Positions 182-55,040 of a stretch of DNA of 64,000 bases are shown here, one piece after another (position 1 is the first letter of the stretch; every line of letters begins with the position of its first letter). This stretch comes from Actinomycetota bacterium. GTDB taxonomy: Bacteria > Actinomycetota > Geothermincolia > Geothermincolales > RBG-13-55-18. Position numbers and translations under genes: made by a program. The notes under the pieces are model-generated. The model was not told where the DNA came from. It ran no database searches and was given only the letters and a program-made list of their open reading frames with translations. The DNA is taken from positions 10,701 to 74,700 of the forward strand of contig QZKE01000021.1 of the NCBI GenBank assembly GCA_003598015.1. The letters run 5' to 3'.

Positions 182-643
182 ATGACGGATGTGACTCAGT
201 TCGACCGCATCATAGACCGTTACGAAAAGACGGAGGAATCACTGCTGGCCATCCTGCAGGACTTCCAGCGCGAGTTCCACTATGTCCCCGAGGAGGGCAT
301 ACGCCGCCTGAGCGAGGTCATGGAGGTCCCGGAGAGCAAGATCTACGCCATGGGCACCTTCTACAAGGCCATTTCGCTCACCCCGCGCGGCAGGCACACC
401 ATCAAGGTCTGCACGGGGACGGCCTGCCATCTCAAGGGAGCGCCGCAGATCCTGGAGACGCTGGAGCGTGAGCTGAAGGTGAAACGCAACGGCACCACGA
501 CGGATGGAGAGTTCACGTTGGAATGCGTCAACTGCGTGGGGGCCTGCGCCATGGCGCCGTTGACCCTGATCGACGAGGAATACCACGGGCAGACCCGCTC
601 CTCGAAGATCATGGACATGGTCAAGAAACAGGTGGGGAGTTAG
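182..643 (+). CDS. NuoE/HoxE/HydC-like thioredoxin-fold [2Fe-2S] subunit
   Basis: 153 aa. Cys pattern [10 protein letters not shown] ... [12 protein letters not shown] is typical of the 24-kDa NuoE family. 4-nt gaps to both neighbours. Confidence 0.85.
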
Positions 644-647
644 GGAC

Positions 648-2504
648 ATGGGAGCCATCAACTCCATCGAGCAACTGGAAGCTTACCGGCAAGAGATCGC
701 GGCCGAGGTCAAGGCCGATCTTCCCACCGTGCTGGTGTGCTTCGGCACCGGATGCCAGGCCAATGGCGCCAGGCCAGTGGCCGAGGCCTTCAGCGATATC
801 ATTGCGGAACAAGGGCTCGAGCTGAATTTAAGCATCGGTATCAAGACCACGGGCTGCCACGGCTACTGCGAGAACGGGCCGCTGGTGGCGCTCCAGCCGC
901 AGGGTATCCTCTACCTCAAGGTCAAGCCCGATGACGTGCCGGAAATCGTGGAAAAATCCATCAAGAAGGGCGAGATCATCGAGCGGCTCATCTACAGGGA
1001 CAAGACCACGTCGGAGATGATAGCCGAGTACAGCGAGATCCCGTTCTACAAGCACCAGCATCGCATCGCGCTGAGGAACATCGGTGCGGTCGACCCGACC
1101 AATATCGACGATTACTTCCTGGCGGGCGGCTATGCCGGGCTGGTCAAGGCGCTGGGGATGAAACCGGACGACATCATCACCGAGATCGAAAATTCGGGCC
1201 TGCGCGGCCGCGGGGGAGGCGGCTTCCCCGCCGGGACCAAGTGGCGCTCCTGCGTGGCCGTGGACAGCGATGTTCGTTACCTGTTGTGCAACGGCGACGA
1301 AGGCGACCCGGGCGCTTTCATGGACCGCTCGATCATGGAAGGCGACCCGCATACGGTAATCGAGGGTATGATCATCGGCGCCATCGCCATAGGTGCGCAC
1401 ATGGGTTACATCTTCGTGCGTGACGAGTATCCCCTGGCGGTCAGGAACCTGAGTTCCGCCATCGAGGCGGCGCGCGAGAAGGGCCTGCTGGGCGAAAACA
1501 TCCTGGGCAGCGGTTTTTCCTTCGACATCAAGATCAGCCGCGGTGGCGGCGCTTTCGTGTGCGGCGAGTCTTCGGCCCTGATGCGCTCCGTGGCAGGTGA
1601 AGTGGGCGAACCCCGCGCCAAATACATCCGTTCGGTCGAAAGAGGCCTCTACGACAAGCCCACGGTCCTCAACAACGTCGAGACCTGGGCCAACGTACCC
1701 GAGATCATCGTCAAGGGCGCGGAATGGTACGCAAGCCTGGGCACCGAGGGCTCCAAGGGCACCAAAGTCTTCTCCCTGGTGGGCAAGGTCAACAACACCG
1801 GCCTGGTGGAAGTGTCCATGGGCATCTCCATACGGGAGCTGGTCGAGAACATCGGCGGCGGCATCCTGAACGGCAAGAGGTTCAAGGCGGTCCAGACCGG
1901 TGGCCCCTCCGGCGGCTGTATCCCGGAGCGCATGGCGGACCTGCCGGTCGACTTCGACAGCCTGACCGAGGCCGGATCCATGATGGGCTCGGGCGGCATC
2001 ATCGTCATGGACGAGGATACCTGCATGGTGGACGTGGCCAAGTACTTCATCAACTTCCTGGTGGAGGAGTCCTGCGGTAAGTGCACCCCCTGCCGGGACG
2101 GCCTGCCGCGCATGCTGGACCTGCTCACCGACATCACCGAGGGTCGGGGTGGGGAGGAGCACGTAGCCCTGCTGGAGGAGCTGTGCGACCTGCTGACTTG
2201 GGGAGCGTTATGCGGCCTAGGGACCTCGGCCGCCAATCCGGTGCTCTCCACCATAAAATATTTCCGTGATGAATACGACGCCCACATCAGGGATAAGAAG
2301 TGCCCTGCCGGCGTGTGCAAGGCGCTCATCACCTATTCAATTGACCCGGAAGCGTGCACCGGGTGTCTCCTGTGCGCCAAGAAATGCCCGCAGGAATGCA
2401 TCACGGGCGAGCGCAAGGAGCCGCATACCATCGATACGGCCAAGTGTATCAAGTGTGGCGTCTGCAGGGATGTATGCACCTACGATGCAGTGAGGGTTTC
2501 ATAG
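648..2504 (+). CDS. NAD(H)-binding FMN flavoprotein, NuoF/HoxF/HydB-like, with N-terminal thioredoxin-like 2Fe-2S domain and C-terminal 2x[4Fe-4S] domain
   Basis: 618 aa. [16 protein letters not shown] (FMN/NADH site), [10 protein letters not shown] (N3-type cluster), and C-terminal [12 protein letters not shown] plus [11 protein letters not shown] ferredoxin motifs. Confidence 0.9.
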
Positions 2505-2505
2505 C

Positions 2506-3234
2506 ATGGAAAAGGTAAGCGTGATCATCGACGGCAGGACCTTTGAGGCCGTGAAAGACCAGTGCGTGCTGGAAGTGGCGCACGCCAGCGGCATCTACAT
2601 CCCTTCGTTGTGCTACAACAGCGAGGTGACGAGCAGCGGCGGCTCCTGCCGCGTCTGCCTGGTGGAGGCCCATCAGAGAGGCAGGATGAGATTGGTCACT
2701 TCCTGCAACTACCCGGTGCGCGAAGGCCTGGAGGTAAAGACGGATACCCCCCTGGTGCACGGGATTCGCAGGGGCGTGCTGGAACTGCTGATGGCGCGCG
2801 TGCCGGACTCGGAAGTCATCCGGGAGATGGCCGCCGCTGAAGGGCTGAACGATGTTCGCTTCCGCAGGGATGAGGGCGAGAACGACCGCTACAAGTGTAT
2901 CGCCTGCGCGATGTGCACCAACGTCTGCGCCGAAGTGGTGGGCGTTTACGCCATAGCCATGACGGGCCGCGGAGCGGACAAGAAGCCCGCCACTCCCTAT
3001 TACAAGCCATCGGATGTGTGCATCGGCTGCGGCGCCTGCGCCTATGCCTGCCCCACCGGAGCCATCACCATCACGGAGGAGGATGGCATGCGCCGCATAT
3101 GGGGCAGGGATTTCAACATGGTCACCTGCAGCGTTTGCGGCACCCCCTACATTCCAGAAGCCCAGGTGGACTGGATAGTGAGGACAACCGGCAAGGACAG
3201 GTCGTTCTTCGATAAATGCCCCGATCACAGGTGA
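2506..3234 (+). CDS. HoxU / NuoG-N-terminal-like Fe-S subunit (2Fe-2S plus 4Fe-4S motifs), no catalytic domain
   Basis: 242 aa. N-terminal 2Fe-2S pattern (CYNSEV..SCRVCLVE..SC), then CIACAMCTNVC and CIGCGACAYACP. No H-cluster, molybdopterin or NiFe domain. Starts 2 nt after the NuoF-like stop. Confidence 0.75.
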   Translation: MEKVSVIIDGRTFEAVKDQCVLEVAHASGIYIPSLCYNSEVTSSGGSCRVCLVEAHQRGRMRLVTSCNYPVREGLEVKTDTPLVHGIRRGVLELLMARVPDSEVIREMAAAEGLNDVRFRRDEGENDRYKCIACAMCTNVCAEVVGVYAIAMTGRGADKKPATPYYKPSDVCIGCGACAYACPTGAITITEEDGMRRIWGRDFNMVTCSVCGTPYIPEAQVDWIVRTTGKDRSFFDKCPDHR

Positions 3235-3291: not shown

Positions 3292-5499
<2,208 letters not shown>

Positions 5500-44293: not shown

Positions 44294-44826
44294 ATGCGGT
44301 ACCCGCATCTCTGCAGCGAAGGCACGATCGGAAAGGTGGTTACAAGGAACCGAGTGGTAATGGAGCCCATGGGGACGGGAATGGCGAACTACGACGGCAC
44401 TCCATCTCAACAGCTCATCGACTATTACGGGGAAAGGGCGAAAAACGGGCTGGGCCTGCTCATCGTAGAGGTCACACGGGTCAACAGCGTCCATGGGGCG
44501 ACAATTCCCAGGCAGCTGTCCATGGCCCATGACCGCCACATCGCGCCCTTCGCCGCGAGCGGGAATACCGGCCCGAGTTCATCGTCTCTCATATGCTGGT
44601 GGAGATAGGGGGTGGGGAGATAACGCTGCAACACATGAAATCCGGCGACCGCATCTCACGTCAGATCGACAACGTTGTCCTGGCCGTGGGTGCCAAAGAG
44701 GATAAACGCCTAGCCGGGGAGCTCGAGCAGGTTTTTACGCGCGTCCGCACCGTAGGCGACGCGCATCGGGTGGGTCGCATTCATAACGCGGTGCGGGATG
44801 CCTTCGATACCGCCTGGGAGCTGTAG
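44294..44826 (+). pseudogene. 2-enoate reductase / 2,4-dienoyl-CoA reductase-type gene with a large internal deletion
   Basis: RBS AAGGAG. The first ~85 codons form an OYE N-terminus (MRYPHL...IGKVVTRNRVVMEPMGT...YYGERAKNGLGLLIVE). The frame then decays and stops at 44608. The overlapping ORF 44593-44826 encodes only the extreme C-terminus of the FAD/NAD domain (DNVVLAVGAKED...VRTVGDAHRVGRIHNAVRDAFDTAWEL). Confidence 0.6.
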
Positions 44827-51863: not shown

Positions 51864-52919
51864 GTGAGGATGATGGAGAGGAATCTCAGGCTCGTATGCA
51901 GTAAAGCCCTGCATGAGGATGCGGGGCGGGGGATGCCGCCCGTGGCGGATGAGGACGGATATCTCCTGGATGCTTATTCCCGCGCGGTTTCCGGTGCCGC
52001 GGAGAAGGTCAGCCCATCGGTGGTGAACATCTCCGTGACGCAGAAAGCGCAGAGGCGCGAAAGACCCGGAGGGCTTCCATCCGGGGAGACGCAGGGTACA
52101 GGCTCCGGCTTCATGTTCACCGGAGACGGCTTCATCCTCACCAACAGCCACGTGGTGCAGGGAGCCCGCAAAGTGGAGGTCACCCTGCCCGACGGCAGGA
52201 ATTTTCGGGCCGATATAGTGGGAGACGACCCCGACACCGACCTGGCGGTGGTCAGGATAAGCGCACCCGGGCTGGAACCGCTGTGCCTGGGCGATTCCCA
52301 GTTGCTGCGCGTGGGCCAGCTGGTCATCGCCGTGGGTAATCCCTACGGCTTCCAGTGCACGGTGACCGCCGGGGTCATCAGCGCCCTGGGGCGTTCCCTC
52401 CGTTCCCGCTCCGGGCGGCTCATAGACAACGTCATTCAGACGGATGCCGCCCTGAATCCCGGTAACTCCGGGGGCCCGCTGGTGAACTCGCGGGGGGAGG
52501 TCATCGGGGTGAATACAGCCGTCATCTATCCCGCCCAGGGGCTGTGCTTCGCCATCGCCGTGAACACCGCCAAGTTCGTGGCGGGCAGGCTCATACAATA
52601 CGGCCGGGTGAAGCGCTCCTATATCGGGGCGGCGGGACAGGACATTTCCCTCAACCGGAGGGTGGTGCGCTACCACGACCTGCCGGTGAGCAAGGGATTC
52701 CTGGTGACCCAGATGGAGCCCGACAGCCCGGCCGCGCGGGCCGGCCTCAAGGAGGGGGACATCATCGTGGCCTATAACGGCTGCCCCATCGCTGGCGTGG
52801 ATGACCTGCACCGCATGCTCAGCGAGGAACAGATAGGCGTGAAGTCCAGCCTCACCGTCATCAAGCGTGCGAACAAGAGAGAAGTCGAGATAGTGCCGGG
52901 GGAGAAGAAGACCGGCTAA
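51864..52919 (+). CDS. HtrA/DegP-type trypsin-like serine protease with PDZ domain
   Basis: LTNSHVV (His), DLAVV (Asp), GNSGGPLVN (Ser), and a C-terminal PDZ (...AGLKEGDIIVAYNG...). The start is ambiguous (GTG 51864, ATG 51870 or ATG 51873). Confidence 0.85.
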   Translation: MRMMERNLRLVCSKALHEDAGRGMPPVADEDGYLLDAYSRAVSGAAEKVSPSVVNISVTQKAQRRERPGGLPSGETQGTGSGFMFTGDGFILTNSHVVQGARKVEVTLPDGRNFRADIVGDDPDTDLAVVRISAPGLEPLCLGDSQLLRVGQLVIAVGNPYGFQCTVTAGVISALGRSLRSRSGRLIDNVIQTDAALNPGNSGGPLVNSRGEVIGVNTAVIYPAQGLCFAIAVNTAKFVAGRLIQYGRVKRSYIGAAGQDISLNRRVVRYHDLPVSKGFLVTQMEPDSPAARAGLKEGDIIVAYNGCPIAGVDDLHRMLSEEQIGVKSSLTVIKRANKREVEIVPGEKKTG

Positions 52920-52929
52920 GGGGAGCGGC

Positions 52930-53547
52930 ATGCGCAAGGTCCTTATTGCCTGGGTGGTGGGGGCTACCACCTGCGCGGCGGCAGCGAGCCGCCTGCAGCC
53001 CAGGTCGATGCTGCATCCGTGCGACTGGTCCATGCACGAGGAGGGTTCGGTAAGGCGCGTTTACCGCAGCCTATCCCACTTCCTCTACCACCTCAGGGAG
53101 CTCATGAGCGTCCAGGCCCCCATCTCCGAGGTCTATCTCGGTCGCGCCATCTCCCCGGCCTTCCGGGAACGCATCATGCTGGTCACCGCCTATGCCAACG
53201 AGTGCTCGTGGTGACAGTTCGCGCACGGGCGGTTCGGTCGGATCGCGGGGATGACGGGGGAGGAGCTGAGGGAACTGGTGGAACTGGATCCCGAGAGGTT
53301 CGATGCGCGCGAGCACGCGGCCCTGTGCTGGGTGCGGGAGACGCTCACGCGCAGGGAGGGAGCCTCGAGAGATACACTCGAGAGGTTCGAGCGGGCCTTC
53401 GACGAGCGCCAGCGCAGGCATATCGTCGCCACCATGAAAGCGATGTACTTCTTCAACCTGGCCGGCAATACCCTGGACGGCTGGCTGCGCCGCATGCTCG
53501 GCCAGCGCGAGGATGCGCACGAAGCCTGCGTGCTATCCCGCGATTGA
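52930..53547 (+). CDS. AhpD/carboxymuconolactone-decarboxylase-family protein with an in-frame TGA (53212-53214) at the second redox Cys position: candidate selenoprotein (or nonsense pseudogene)
   Basis: The ORF track splits it into 52930-53214 and 53251-53547. Both are in the same frame, with no other stop between them. The read-through gives ...TAYANE-C-S-W-[TGA]-Q-F-A-H-GRF..., which fits the CxxCxxxH motif of AhpD (CSHCLVAH in M. tuberculosis AhpD, from memory). Confidence 0.6.
53218..53249 (+). other. hairpin downstream of the in-frame TGA (candidate bacterial SECIS)
   Basis: Drawn by eye. 53218-53223 (UUCGCG) pairs with 53244-53249 (CGCGGG, two G-U pairs). An inner helix runs around 53224-53228 / 53238-53241. 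The apical GGUU lies about 20-23 nt after the U of UGA. Not energy-evaluated. Confidence 0.35.
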
Positions 53548-54539: not shown

Positions 54540-55040
54540 ATGAAAGCGACTGTGGTCATACTGACCGTATTACTCTGCGGAACCGCGCTTTTCGTCGCTG
54601 GGTGTCCGCGGGCTGAAAGACTGGCTGGATCGGAAGAGGCGGGGACCTCCGGCGAAACGGGGGAGAGTTCCGCCCAGGGCTCGGGGGCGTTCACGGAGGT
54701 CCCCGGCGAGATAAGCATCTATCCCGGCGCATCCCAGGTCGGCAGCGGCAGGGATATAACCGTGAGCGGCCTGAGGATAGAGGGGACCATCGACGGTGCA
54801 ACCTATCATGTCGAGGCAGATTACGATGATGTGGCGGCATGGTATCGTGAACAGCTTTCGGGGGCACTGGAGTTCGCCGCTACTGTAAGCGGTGAGCGGG
54901 GCAGCGGGAGAGGCACGATATTCGTCTTGCTCTCCGGCTCTGGCATCGGTACGGCGGTCACCGTGGCCACCGCGGAGGGCGGCTCGGGCACGACCATCAA
55001 CATCGGCAGCTGGCAGGGCTCTGTACAGGAGGGGACGTAA
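54540..55040 (+). CDS. hypothetical lipoprotein
   Basis: 166 aa. Signal peptide with lipobox LFVAGC and a G/S/E-rich linker. Confidence 0.6.
   Translation: MKATVVILTVLLCGTALFVAGCPRAERLAGSEEAGTSGETGESSAQGSGAFTEVPGEISIYPGASQVGSGRDITVSGLRIEGTIDGATYHVEADYDDVAAWYREQLSGALEFAATVSGERGSGRGTIFVLLSGSGIGTAVTVATAEGGSGTTINIGSWQGSVQEGT

Follow-up and report, generated by a model that had tools for sequence, protein, structure and literature searches.

The two short open reading frames between positions 52930 and 53547 of the window (the whole stretch of 64,000 nucleotides analysed here) are a single gene, which encodes a 205-residue redox protein of the AhpD type. Very probably the product is one selenoprotein with the AhpD/CMD fold and a putative oxidoreductase, its internal UGA being read as selenocysteine (Sec) and a downstream hairpin with a GGUC loop serving as the SECIS element.

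The frames 52930-53214 and 53251-53547 lie on the plus strand in one shared frame, and the sole stop between them is TGA 53212-53214. Both this and the read-through peptide, ...LVTAYANECSW*QFAHGRFGRIAGMTGEELRELV..., had been given by an earlier sequence-only reading; no other intervening stop was found, and the peptide agrees with the translation letter for letter. The features referred to below are as follows.

51870-52919, plus strand: HtrA-like serine protease gene (Trypsin_2 and PDZ; precomputed Pfam families), upstream of the selenoprotein gene
52920-52925, plus strand: Shine-Dalgarno-like GGGGAG, 4 nt 5' of the ATG, found by sequence inspection; putative function
52930-53547, plus strand: coding sequence of the putative AhpD-like selenoprotein, complete; 205 residues with Sec as residue 95, terminated by a TGA of its own at 53545-53547
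52939-52989, plus strand: hydrophobic stretch near the N-terminus (residues 4-20, VLIAWVVGATTCAAAAS), where the Kyte-Doolittle score peaks at 1.98 (residue 4)
53167-53169, plus strand: codon of Glu80, the E of E-x11-C-x-x-U-x3-H, equal to Glu118 of M. tuberculosis AhpD; invariant in alignments A3 and A4
53203-53205, plus strand: TGC codon of Cys92, the first residue of CxxU; invariant in alignment A3
53212-53214, plus strand: in-frame UGA, putatively read as Sec95, aligned to the second Cys of the AhpD CxxC
53224-53226, plus strand: CAC codon of His99, the H of CxxUxxxH, equal to His137 of AhpD; CAC in 19 of 19 sequences
53229-53246, plus strand: SECIS-like hairpin with a 7-bp stem (5' arm 53229-53235, loop GGUC 53236-53239, 3' arm 53240-53246)
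53527-53529, plus strand: codon of Cys200, a third Cys close to the C-terminus; Cys in 17 of the 19 sequences of the alignment column

The coding sequence is supported by a full-length syntenic Cys orthologue (P0001) with 61% identity across 90% of the length. The GC content at third codon positions (GC3) is 0.87 upstream of the TGA and 0.83-0.85 downstream of it. The internal TGA falls on the second Cys of E-x11-C-x-x-C-x3-H, the proton-relay signature of AhpD, which sits on a two-helix hairpin (relay residues from PMC3141380). The active site of the window protein, Glu80-x11-Cys92-Ser-Trp-Sec95-x3-His99, has exactly the AhpD spacing. The E, C and H of the signature are invariant in the family, and the second Cys of CxxC is invariant across 25 full-length Cys homologues. 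An in-frame UGA that aligns with Cys in homologues is what a selenoprotein gene would be expected to contain, and the alignment argues for such a gene here.

With C placed at the stop, the 205-aa product matches the Pfam CMD family PF02627 with 29.9 bits (cut-off 23) over residues 71-118. The match runs across the TGA, in agreement with the earlier proposal that both halves form one CMD/AhpD domain protein of about 205 aa. Against TIGR00778 (ahpD_dom) the window protein scores 27.1 vs. a cut-off of 27.8, and seven of nine relatives pass with 29.5-41.2. The more specific models give no assignment: TIGR00777 (AhpD proper) yields at most 15.8 bits vs. 191.95, NF041047 (GSU3128) at best about 22.1 vs. 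110, TIGR01926 (peroxidase-related, the COG2128 AhpD-like model) at best 22.5 vs. 81.8, and NF053654 (YciW-related) at best 13.6 vs. 310. Judged by these scores and the active site, the gene is one that would work like the NF041047, TIGR01926 and NF053654 families, yet it is a member of none of them. Also considered was the namesake enzyme of the Pfam family, gamma-carboxymuconolactone decarboxylase, which has a three-helix CMD motif without CxxC or a proton relay (PMC3141380). It was rejected since CxxU together with the Glu and His relay is present, and the protein therefore belongs to the AhpD-like redox branch.

Codon 95 is TGA in 18 of 19 GTDB species-representative genomes and in all 41 metagenome loci. 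Altogether it is carried by 59 of the 60 related loci, which represent various species and samples and show 39-76% protein identity to the window protein, whereas the syntenic orthologue of Ca. Solincola daggyaiensis (L007/L002) has TGT. TAA or TAG at this codon, extra stops and frameshifts were never seen among the 60. The Sec to Cys ratio of 59:1 is valid only for the clade with the search pattern FRE[QR][IV]M[IL][VT]T, because Sec forms were the main source of the pattern, which would miss the Cys homologue P0005 (FREKIM). A library of 1.8 billion proteins contains 18 diverged N-terminal fragments, every one ending in C-x-x-stop, and at least 18 C-terminal fragments that begin just past the TGA point. 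The motif xxAHxxFGRxAG is kept downstream of the TGA, including the catalytic His before the next ATG, and dN/dS downstream is below 1 (0.17-0.46 in the closer relatives). Such conservation of the UGA and of the downstream frame over diverged orthologues is expected of selenoproteins and points to one in this clade.

The sequence-only reading had offered as its alternative a TGC/TGT-to-TGA nonsense mutation, with the two reading frames as decaying halves of a pseudogene. The TGA is indeed one base from the TGT of the orthologue, and pseudogene-like small fragments of Oxidored_FMN (104 and 77 aa) occur elsewhere on the same contig. The comparative data nevertheless refute this explanation and leave it with a negligible probability: the same TGA stands in nearly all loci, unaccompanied by any other lesion, and the part downstream of it is under purifying selection. 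Moreover, the identical 94-aa fragment was read on three contigs, and the contig is listed for two samples, so that a one-off assembly error is also unlikely.

It would be conceivable, too, that the UGA is a true stop and that two polypeptides assemble, the second being made by re-initiation at the downstream start (53251 in the window). Gene callers do find a start codon for the C-terminal frame at every locus, and no sel genes were found in a search that covered the contig (92.7 kb) and the related loci. But the stretch from the TGA to the ATG, QFAHGRFGRIAG, is conserved as protein and matches the Cys forms, in which its translation is certain. It holds the catalytic His99, whose codon lies past the TGA but ahead of the next ATG, so that this residue can be made only by read-through of the UGA. 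Downstream starts are not fixed and drift among loci from +2 to +26 codons. Two separate polypeptides would break the catalytic helix between its redox residues and lose one that never varies among the Cys homologues, and the GGUC-loop hairpin would be left without a role. We regard two separate polypeptides as very improbable, and translation through the UGA into a single selenoprotein is strongly preferred.

The hairpin begins 14 nt past the UGA, overlaps the codons R-F-G-R-I-A and has its loop at nt 25-28 counted from the U of UGA. Of 47 distinct sequences, 44 have it at the same place and the remaining three have a different 8-bp hairpin. All 161 cells of register A pair (100%), with compensatory changes at two pairs; none of 500 shuffles reaches that, and slid controls give 28-41% pairing. 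For register B, 10 sequences have CG and 6 have GC at pair 18-36. In about half of the relatives the register is shifted by one base, giving the loop GGUCG. The Gly codon of the hairpin is GGT in 18 of 18 sequences vs. a genome-wide background of about 12%, and synonymous sites are frozen at the hairpin only (other conserved Gly columns: 1.75-1.83 bits). The two Cys forms use different codons for F-G-R and lack the hairpin. Its conservation partly reflects the protein, since it overlaps the conserved FGR peptide motif.

Energy folding of positions 53205-53275, which had been suggested as a check of the hairpin, gave a value no better than shuffles (z = +0.24), and the case for the hairpin is for this reason built on comparative evidence. 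Relative to synonymous recodings the hairpin is modestly more stable (z from -0.5 to -2.6, weakly significant per sequence). At gathering thresholds, Rfam gave no match in the window, as expected for a short bacterial SECIS. A hairpin 3' of the UGA had been drawn from the sequence, and its presence now has comparative support; the GGUU apex assigned to it does not hold, the real apex being GGUC, 5 nt farther. A stem-loop 3' of the UGA with a conserved G (GU) in an apical loop within about 16-37 nt has the form of a bacterial SECIS, and the window hairpin is a good candidate for one.

The SECIS of E. coli fdhF similarly lies immediately 3' of its UGA inside the coding sequence, and its apical tetraloop GGUC is identical. 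The fdhF loop is at nt 22-25 vs. 25-28 here, one codon farther from the UGA; the 7-bp stem of the window hairpin has no bulged U; and its relatives vary, with the shifted GGUCG register in about half of them and a different hairpin in three. The hairpin is also an example of dual coding: it fixes GGU for Gly in high-GC genomes, and base pairing couples the residues that flank FGR (R...I vs. A...N).

Conservation downstream of the TGA demands read-through, which would also be provided by recoding of the UGA as an amino acid other than Sec, whether by near-cognate read-through (Trp or Cys), by a suppressor tRNA or by lineage-wide reassignment. The Sec machinery was not seen on the contig or the related loci: selA, selB, selD and tRNA-Sec are absent from the 92.7-kb source contig, the part outside the window included, and from related loci totalling about 535 kb (288 kb + 247 kb searched by tblastn, the queries being SelA, SelB and SelD of E. 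coli; tRNA search of the window and loci). This result is uninformative rather than negative because the search extended to the contig and these loci alone. Elsewhere in Actinobacteria the Sec trait has been recorded (PMC1794560). Reassignment is out, since UGA is a normal stop elsewhere and terminates 26 of 46 contig genes, including the selenoprotein gene itself. In a scan of the window, also with relaxed lengths, this TGA alone had a coding signature on both flanks, and no second selenoprotein gene was found. Furthermore, homologues have a redox Cys at this site, a classic Sec/Cys pair, a SelB-type GGUC loop lies at the expected distance downstream, and CxxU AhpD-like selenoproteins are already established. 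Recoding to another amino acid is accordingly given only a slight probability. The proposal of Sec at the second Cys of CxxCxxxH, made originally from the sequence, gains support from the conserved TGA, the conserved and covarying hairpin, and the TGT of the syntenic orthologue.

The fold was examined with an AlphaFold2 model of the Cys orthologue P0001, and not of the window protein (pLDDT 86.3; above 90 for most of residues 51-190). The model predicts an all-helical AhpD fold. With it, the top Foldseek matches are all AhpD-like, the best being P. aeruginosa AhpD 7XW1 (TM 0.82 on target). By sequence the closest PDB entries, at E of about 4e-6, are proteins of the PA0269 type from P. aeruginosa and Agrobacterium (7XW1, 2O4D/2IJC, 2GMY), which are also nearest by predicted fold (TM up to 0.82) and have the catalytic helix hairpin at an identical place. 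The PA0269-type proteins are soluble, about 145 aa long and of the CxxC kind, with 22-24% identity, whereas the window protein has about 50 extra N-terminal residues (hydrophobic segment and linker) and would carry Sec for the second Cys. Residues 4-20 form a putative signal anchor or signal peptide: nine of ten family members have their hydrophobicity maximum at the N-terminal end, and in the orthologue model residues 2-27 are a helix of low confidence. At the other end, Cys200 is conserved family-wide and is seen in most of the C-terminal fragments.

M. tuberculosis AhpD (PDB 1GU9; Glu118, Cys130, His132, Cys133, His137) shares the identical spacing, and Sec would replace its Cys133. The similarity is, however, distant in both sequence and structure (Foldseek E about 2, TM about 0.46-0.57). 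The equivalent of His132 is Trp in the window protein, no ahpC is adjacent, and the catalytic hairpin, which AhpD has in the C-terminal half of its domain, occupies the N-terminal half here, the arrangement of the PA0269 type.

These comparisons suggest the following scheme. The UGA at 53212-53214 would be decoded as selenocysteine, the GGUC hairpin recruiting SelB with Sec-tRNA(Sec) to the ribosome paused there, as the conservation of the hairpin implies. Sec95 would then take the place of the exposed, attacking Cys133 of M. tuberculosis AhpD. In the mycobacterial system, Cys133 attacks AhpC, and AhpD is recycled by the lipoamide-dependent Lpd/SucB. The window protein is most likely a selenol/thiol-disulfide oxidoreductase that may reduce an oxidised partner or peroxide via a Cys92-Sec95 selenylsulfide, the centre being re-reduced possibly by a lipoyl protein. 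Two relatives (L020 and L021) carry an in-frame fusion to a GCV_H domain (PF01597, 118-120 bits). The fusion of this lipoyl carrier suggests an electron donor and a lipoyl link similar to that of mycobacterial AhpD, and it provides a testable electron-donor hypothesis for an AhpD-like selenoprotein. The catalytic activity, the partner and the membrane topology given here are what we infer for the window protein.

The proposed reaction is drawn by analogy because the neighbourhood contains no conserved partner gene. At the loci examined there is no conserved operon partner, peroxiredoxin and lipoamide dehydrogenase are also absent nearby, and no peroxiredoxin gene adjoins any locus, so that the ahpC linkage of AhpD proper is not seen. 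The selenoprotein gene starts 10 nt past the stop of the HtrA-like gene, and the two are probably co-transcribed. The HtrA-like gene adjoins in only the four closest loci (the window, L005, L007 and L009), while the neighbours at other loci are unrelated (DUF308, DUF1622, HD_5, histidine kinase, amine oxidase and others). The stress cluster in which the gene had been placed by the sequence-only reading is weak in this light.

AhpD-like or CMD selenoproteins with CxxU have been described as 'AhpD-like 1' (COG2128) and 'AhpD-like 2' or 'CMD domain-containing protein' (PF02627) by Zhang and Gladyshev (PMC1088965, PMC2398784, PMC13188914); the earlier statement that such proteins form a recognised family was correct. 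The window protein resembles them in its PF02627/AhpD core, Sec at the second CxxC position, the existence of Cys homologues, and a SECIS-type hairpin that closely follows the UGA and whose apical loop contains G. It differs in that its clade is far under the cut-offs of the curated models linked to these families, in a comparison that left out the published representative MBW1767730.1, and in that members have an N-terminus of hydrophobic residues and a Cys conserved near the C-terminus. The loci found come only from Actinomycetota or unclassified metagenome-assembled genomes. By these sequence comparisons the gene is assigned to a new AhpD-like selenoprotein clade of Ca. Geothermincolia and other Actinomycetota; the kind is already known, the host lineage has been little studied, and no curated selenoprotein model covers the clade.

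A stronger proposal is that of a distinct, uncatalogued AhpD-core selenoprotein family of anaerobic Actinomycetota (Ca. Geothermincolia and some metagenome-assembled genomes labelled Acidimicrobiia), with Sec near-fixed and Cys forms a rare exception, a SECIS embedded in the codons of the invariant FGR motif, through whose stem the flanking residues covary with the RNA, a membrane tether and recycling by a lipoyl carrier that two genomes have as a GcvH fusion. We consider this possible but rather doubtful as a whole; if true, it would describe a selenium-dependent, lipoyl-linked reductase at the membrane. General knowledge of selenoproteins is unchanged by the window gene. Annotation of every genome and metagenome examined splits the gene into two hypothetical reading frames of about 95 aa, and for this reason a redox enzyme and evidence for the use of selenium in Ca. 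Geothermincolia at present go unnoticed. A clade-specific profile would mend dozens of records.

The reading frame at 52930-53547 (+) spans 206 codons, with TGA 53212-53214 as its sole internal stop. Read-through gives ...LVTAYANECSW*QFAHGRFGRIAGMTGEELRELV..., which recovers the single interrupted frame described for the two annotated ORFs in the sequence-only reading. With Cys put at the stop, the 205-residue product matches the Pfam CMD family PF02627 at 29.9 bits (cut-off 23) over residues 71-118, the TGA lying inside the match, and scores 27.1 against the AhpD core-domain model TIGR00778, just under its cut-off of 27.8. GC at third codon positions is 0.87 upstream of the TGA and 0.83-0.85 downstream; among the TGAs of the 64-kb window, this one alone has a coding signature on both sides. 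Because the gene starts 10 nt past an HtrA-like protease gene and carries its own ribosome-binding site, GGGGAG, the two are likely co-transcribed.

The closest full-length relative, a Cys-bearing orthologue of 210 residues from Ca. Solincola daggyaiensis (P0001; class Ca. Geothermincolia, Actinomycetota), shares 61% identity with the query across 90% of the query length. Its active-site stretch is ...ANMCAWCQFAH..., with TGT at the position of the window's TGA, and its neighbours are arranged as in the window, HtrA before the gene and then amine oxidase, amidohydrolase, and acyltransferase after it. When P0001 was searched without a profile against 1.8 billion representative proteins, many fragments of ~95 residues came back, including 18 diverged N-terminal ones, each ending C-x-x-stop, and at least 18 C-terminal fragments starting shortly past that point. 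The sequence-only reading had proposed comparing orthologues at this column. Among species-representative genomes, TGA occupies the Sec codon in 18 of 19 loci, and TGT only in the Solincola genome; the 18 are metagenome-assembled and labelled Actinomycetota (several Ca. Geothermincolia, two Acidimicrobiia) or just 'bacterium'. Metagenome contigs carry TGA in 41/41 loci. The related loci share 39% to 76% protein identity with the window product; none has TAA or TAG at this codon, the frame is open throughout, and xxAHxxFGRxAG comes next in all. Against closer relatives, dN/dS in the region 3' of the hairpin is 0.17-0.46, and the upstream region is similar.

A nonsense mutation is excluded by this retention of TGA within an open, constrained frame. 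An assembly error is likewise excluded, since the truncated 94-residue product is found on three contigs, and the TGA recurs across related loci. The window's metagenome contig (92.7-kb; JGI 3300038436, Ga0394679_034733) is listed for two samples. A changed genetic code is excluded as well: UGA terminates 26 of the 46 contig genes, including the selenoprotein gene itself, so it is not reassigned. The proposal that UGA 53212-53214 encodes selenocysteine in an AhpD-like protein is thereby strengthened; given the conserved TGA, the Cys orthologue, and the downstream hairpin, we consider it very probably correct.

The hairpin itself had to be redrawn. Folding of 53205-53275 by itself, a check suggested earlier, is unremarkable (z = +0.24), and the GGUU apex originally drawn is unsupported; comparison of 47 distinct downstream sequences gives a GGUC loop instead.

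SECIS-like hairpin and its forms in the 47 sequences
53229-53235 / 53240-53246 (+): arms of the hairpin, with loop GGUC at 53236-53239
Register A, GGUC loop: 23/47
Register B, 3' arm shifted by one base, GGUCG loop: 21/47
'FAR' variants, a different 8-bp hairpin: 3/47

Counted from the U of UGA as nt 1, the stem joins nt 18-24 to nt 29-35, leaving the loop at nt 25-28. All 161 cells of register A are paired (100%), with compensatory change at two pairs (GC/AU; AU/GC/GU); this was matched by 0/500 shuffles, and slid controls were 28-41% paired. In register B, the six inner pairs hardly vary, and pair 18-36 switches between CG (10 sequences) and GC (6). The hairpin lies across codons for a conserved F-G-R motif, and RNA constraint therefore has to be judged at synonymous sites. 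The Gly codon of the motif is GGT in 18/18, a codon with a share of about 12% among the Gly codons of these genomes, while codon entropy at other conserved Gly columns of the gene is 1.75-1.83 bits. His +4 is CAC in 19/19 and Arg +9 only CGG or CGA. The two Cys forms code F-G-R as TTC GGA CGC and TTC GGC AGG, and the hairpin is absent from this downstream region in both. The residues beside FGR covary with the stem: register A has R-FGR-I and register B has A-FGR-N. The gene neatly illustrates how a SECIS can limit the choice of both codons and residues. In E. coli, the fdhF SECIS (sequence taken from the K-12 genome) has an identical GGUC apical loop, placed one codon nearer the UGA (nt 22-25 vs. 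25-28). The architecture is as expected of a SelB-binding bacterial SECIS, and SelB would be predicted to bind it.

No tRNA-Sec and no homologues of SelA, SelB, or SelD occur in the window, 19 kb more of the contig, or the related loci (~535 kb in total), a result close to the chance expectation for four genes in few-megabase genomes and hence of little weight in either direction. Other Actinobacteria are documented to have the Sec-decoding trait (PMC1794560). Our literature search found no published link between Geothermincolia and selenocysteine; the present data add Ca. Geothermincolia to the lineages with likely Sec use.

[quoted passage not shown] In that enzyme, the exposed Cys133 is the residue that enters the mixed disulfide with AhpC, whereas Cys130 is partly buried (PMC6626918). 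Sec95 would therefore replace the attacking residue, as is usual in Sec/Cys pairs. Among proteins of solved structure, those of the PA0269 AhpD-like type are nearest in sequence (E about 4e-6). The AlphaFold2 model of P0001 is all-helical (mean pLDDT 86.3), with P. aeruginosa AhpD 7XW1 (TM 0.82 on target), Atu0492, and PA0269 as best structural matches. A hydrophobic stretch of ~20 residues opens the window protein and 8/9 relatives examined and could be a signal anchor or signal peptide. A third Cys (Cys200; 53527-53529), in an xxCxL context 5-8 residues from the C-terminus, is present in 17/19 family members, Cys forms included; it may serve in resolving or partner docking, and falls in a low-confidence region of the model (pLDDT 54).

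The one functional hint comes from two loci in which a PF01597 domain (118-120 bits) follows the selenoprotein in the same ORF, with no stop between them.

Fusions of AhpD-like selenoprotein and GCV H-protein (lipoyl carrier), uncultured bacterium MFD04716 bins
L020:2914-3924
L021:2905-3930

The fusion points to a reductant that depends on lipoyl. In mycobacteria, AhpD recycling is carried out by Lpd/SucB, which are lipoamide-dependent (PMC6626918), and with the fusion this makes it plausible that a lipoyl carrier reduces the Cys92-Sec95 selenylsulfide.

CxxU selenoproteins of the AhpD-like (COG2128) and CMD-domain (PF02627) types have been described since 2005 and rank with the most abundant selenoprotein families of prokaryotes in ocean metagenomes (PMC1088965, PMC2398784); a 2026 review has several AhpD-type entries (PMC13188914). 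The phenomenon itself is well known, and the window gene, of the same superfamily, would work like these proteins. The window protein and nine relatives nevertheless all score far below the cut-offs of NF041047, TIGR01926, and NF053654, which points to a new AhpD-type selenoprotein, arguably a new clade. The result also corrects the annotation of a gene split in two.

The HtrA neighbour is confined to the window and three related loci (L005, L007, L009). More distant loci have unrelated neighbours (DUF308, DUF1622, HD_5, PAS histidine kinase, amine oxidase, and others), with no peroxiredoxin or lipoamide dehydrogenase near the gene in those examined. Between L009:1936-3612 and window 51870-53547, HtrA is 91% identical and the selenoprotein only about 50%, suggesting either much faster divergence of the latter or replacement in the same slot. 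Small membrane proteins adjoin the gene in distant relatives, DUF308 at L011:3568-4113, L015:2235-2810, and L016:1932-2501, and DUF1622 at L018:2383-2808 and L022:2278-2724; we know of no functional link. Other genes near the selenoprotein gene and elsewhere on the contig are as follows.

54540-55040 (+): 166-aa protein, lipoprotein-like N-terminus, no Pfam match, conserved in L004 and L005
55188-56171 (-): 327-aa membrane protein, weak Peptidase_M48 match
44294-44826 (+): two short overlapping genes (104 and 77 aa), the first matching Oxidored_FMN
182-3234 (+): NuoE-like (2Fe-2S), NuoF-like (Complex1_51K, 618 aa), and Fer2_4/4Fe-4S (242 aa) trio
3292-5349 (-): catalase-peroxidase (katG-like, 685 aa), adjoining the trio

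The first two, together with HtrA, give a hint of a neighbourhood concerned with quality control of envelope proteins, limited to the closest relatives. Oxidored_FMN members typically have several hundred residues, and 44294-44826 resembles a pseudogene or a fragment of a gene. On the source contig, a DDE transposase adjoins a HepT-like/nucleotidyltransferase toxin-antitoxin pair (L024:1287-3579, some 6-8 kb before the first position of the window), suggesting that this end of the contig is mobile or variable. Directly upstream of the window is a gene set of the pyruvate:ferredoxin-oxidoreductase type.
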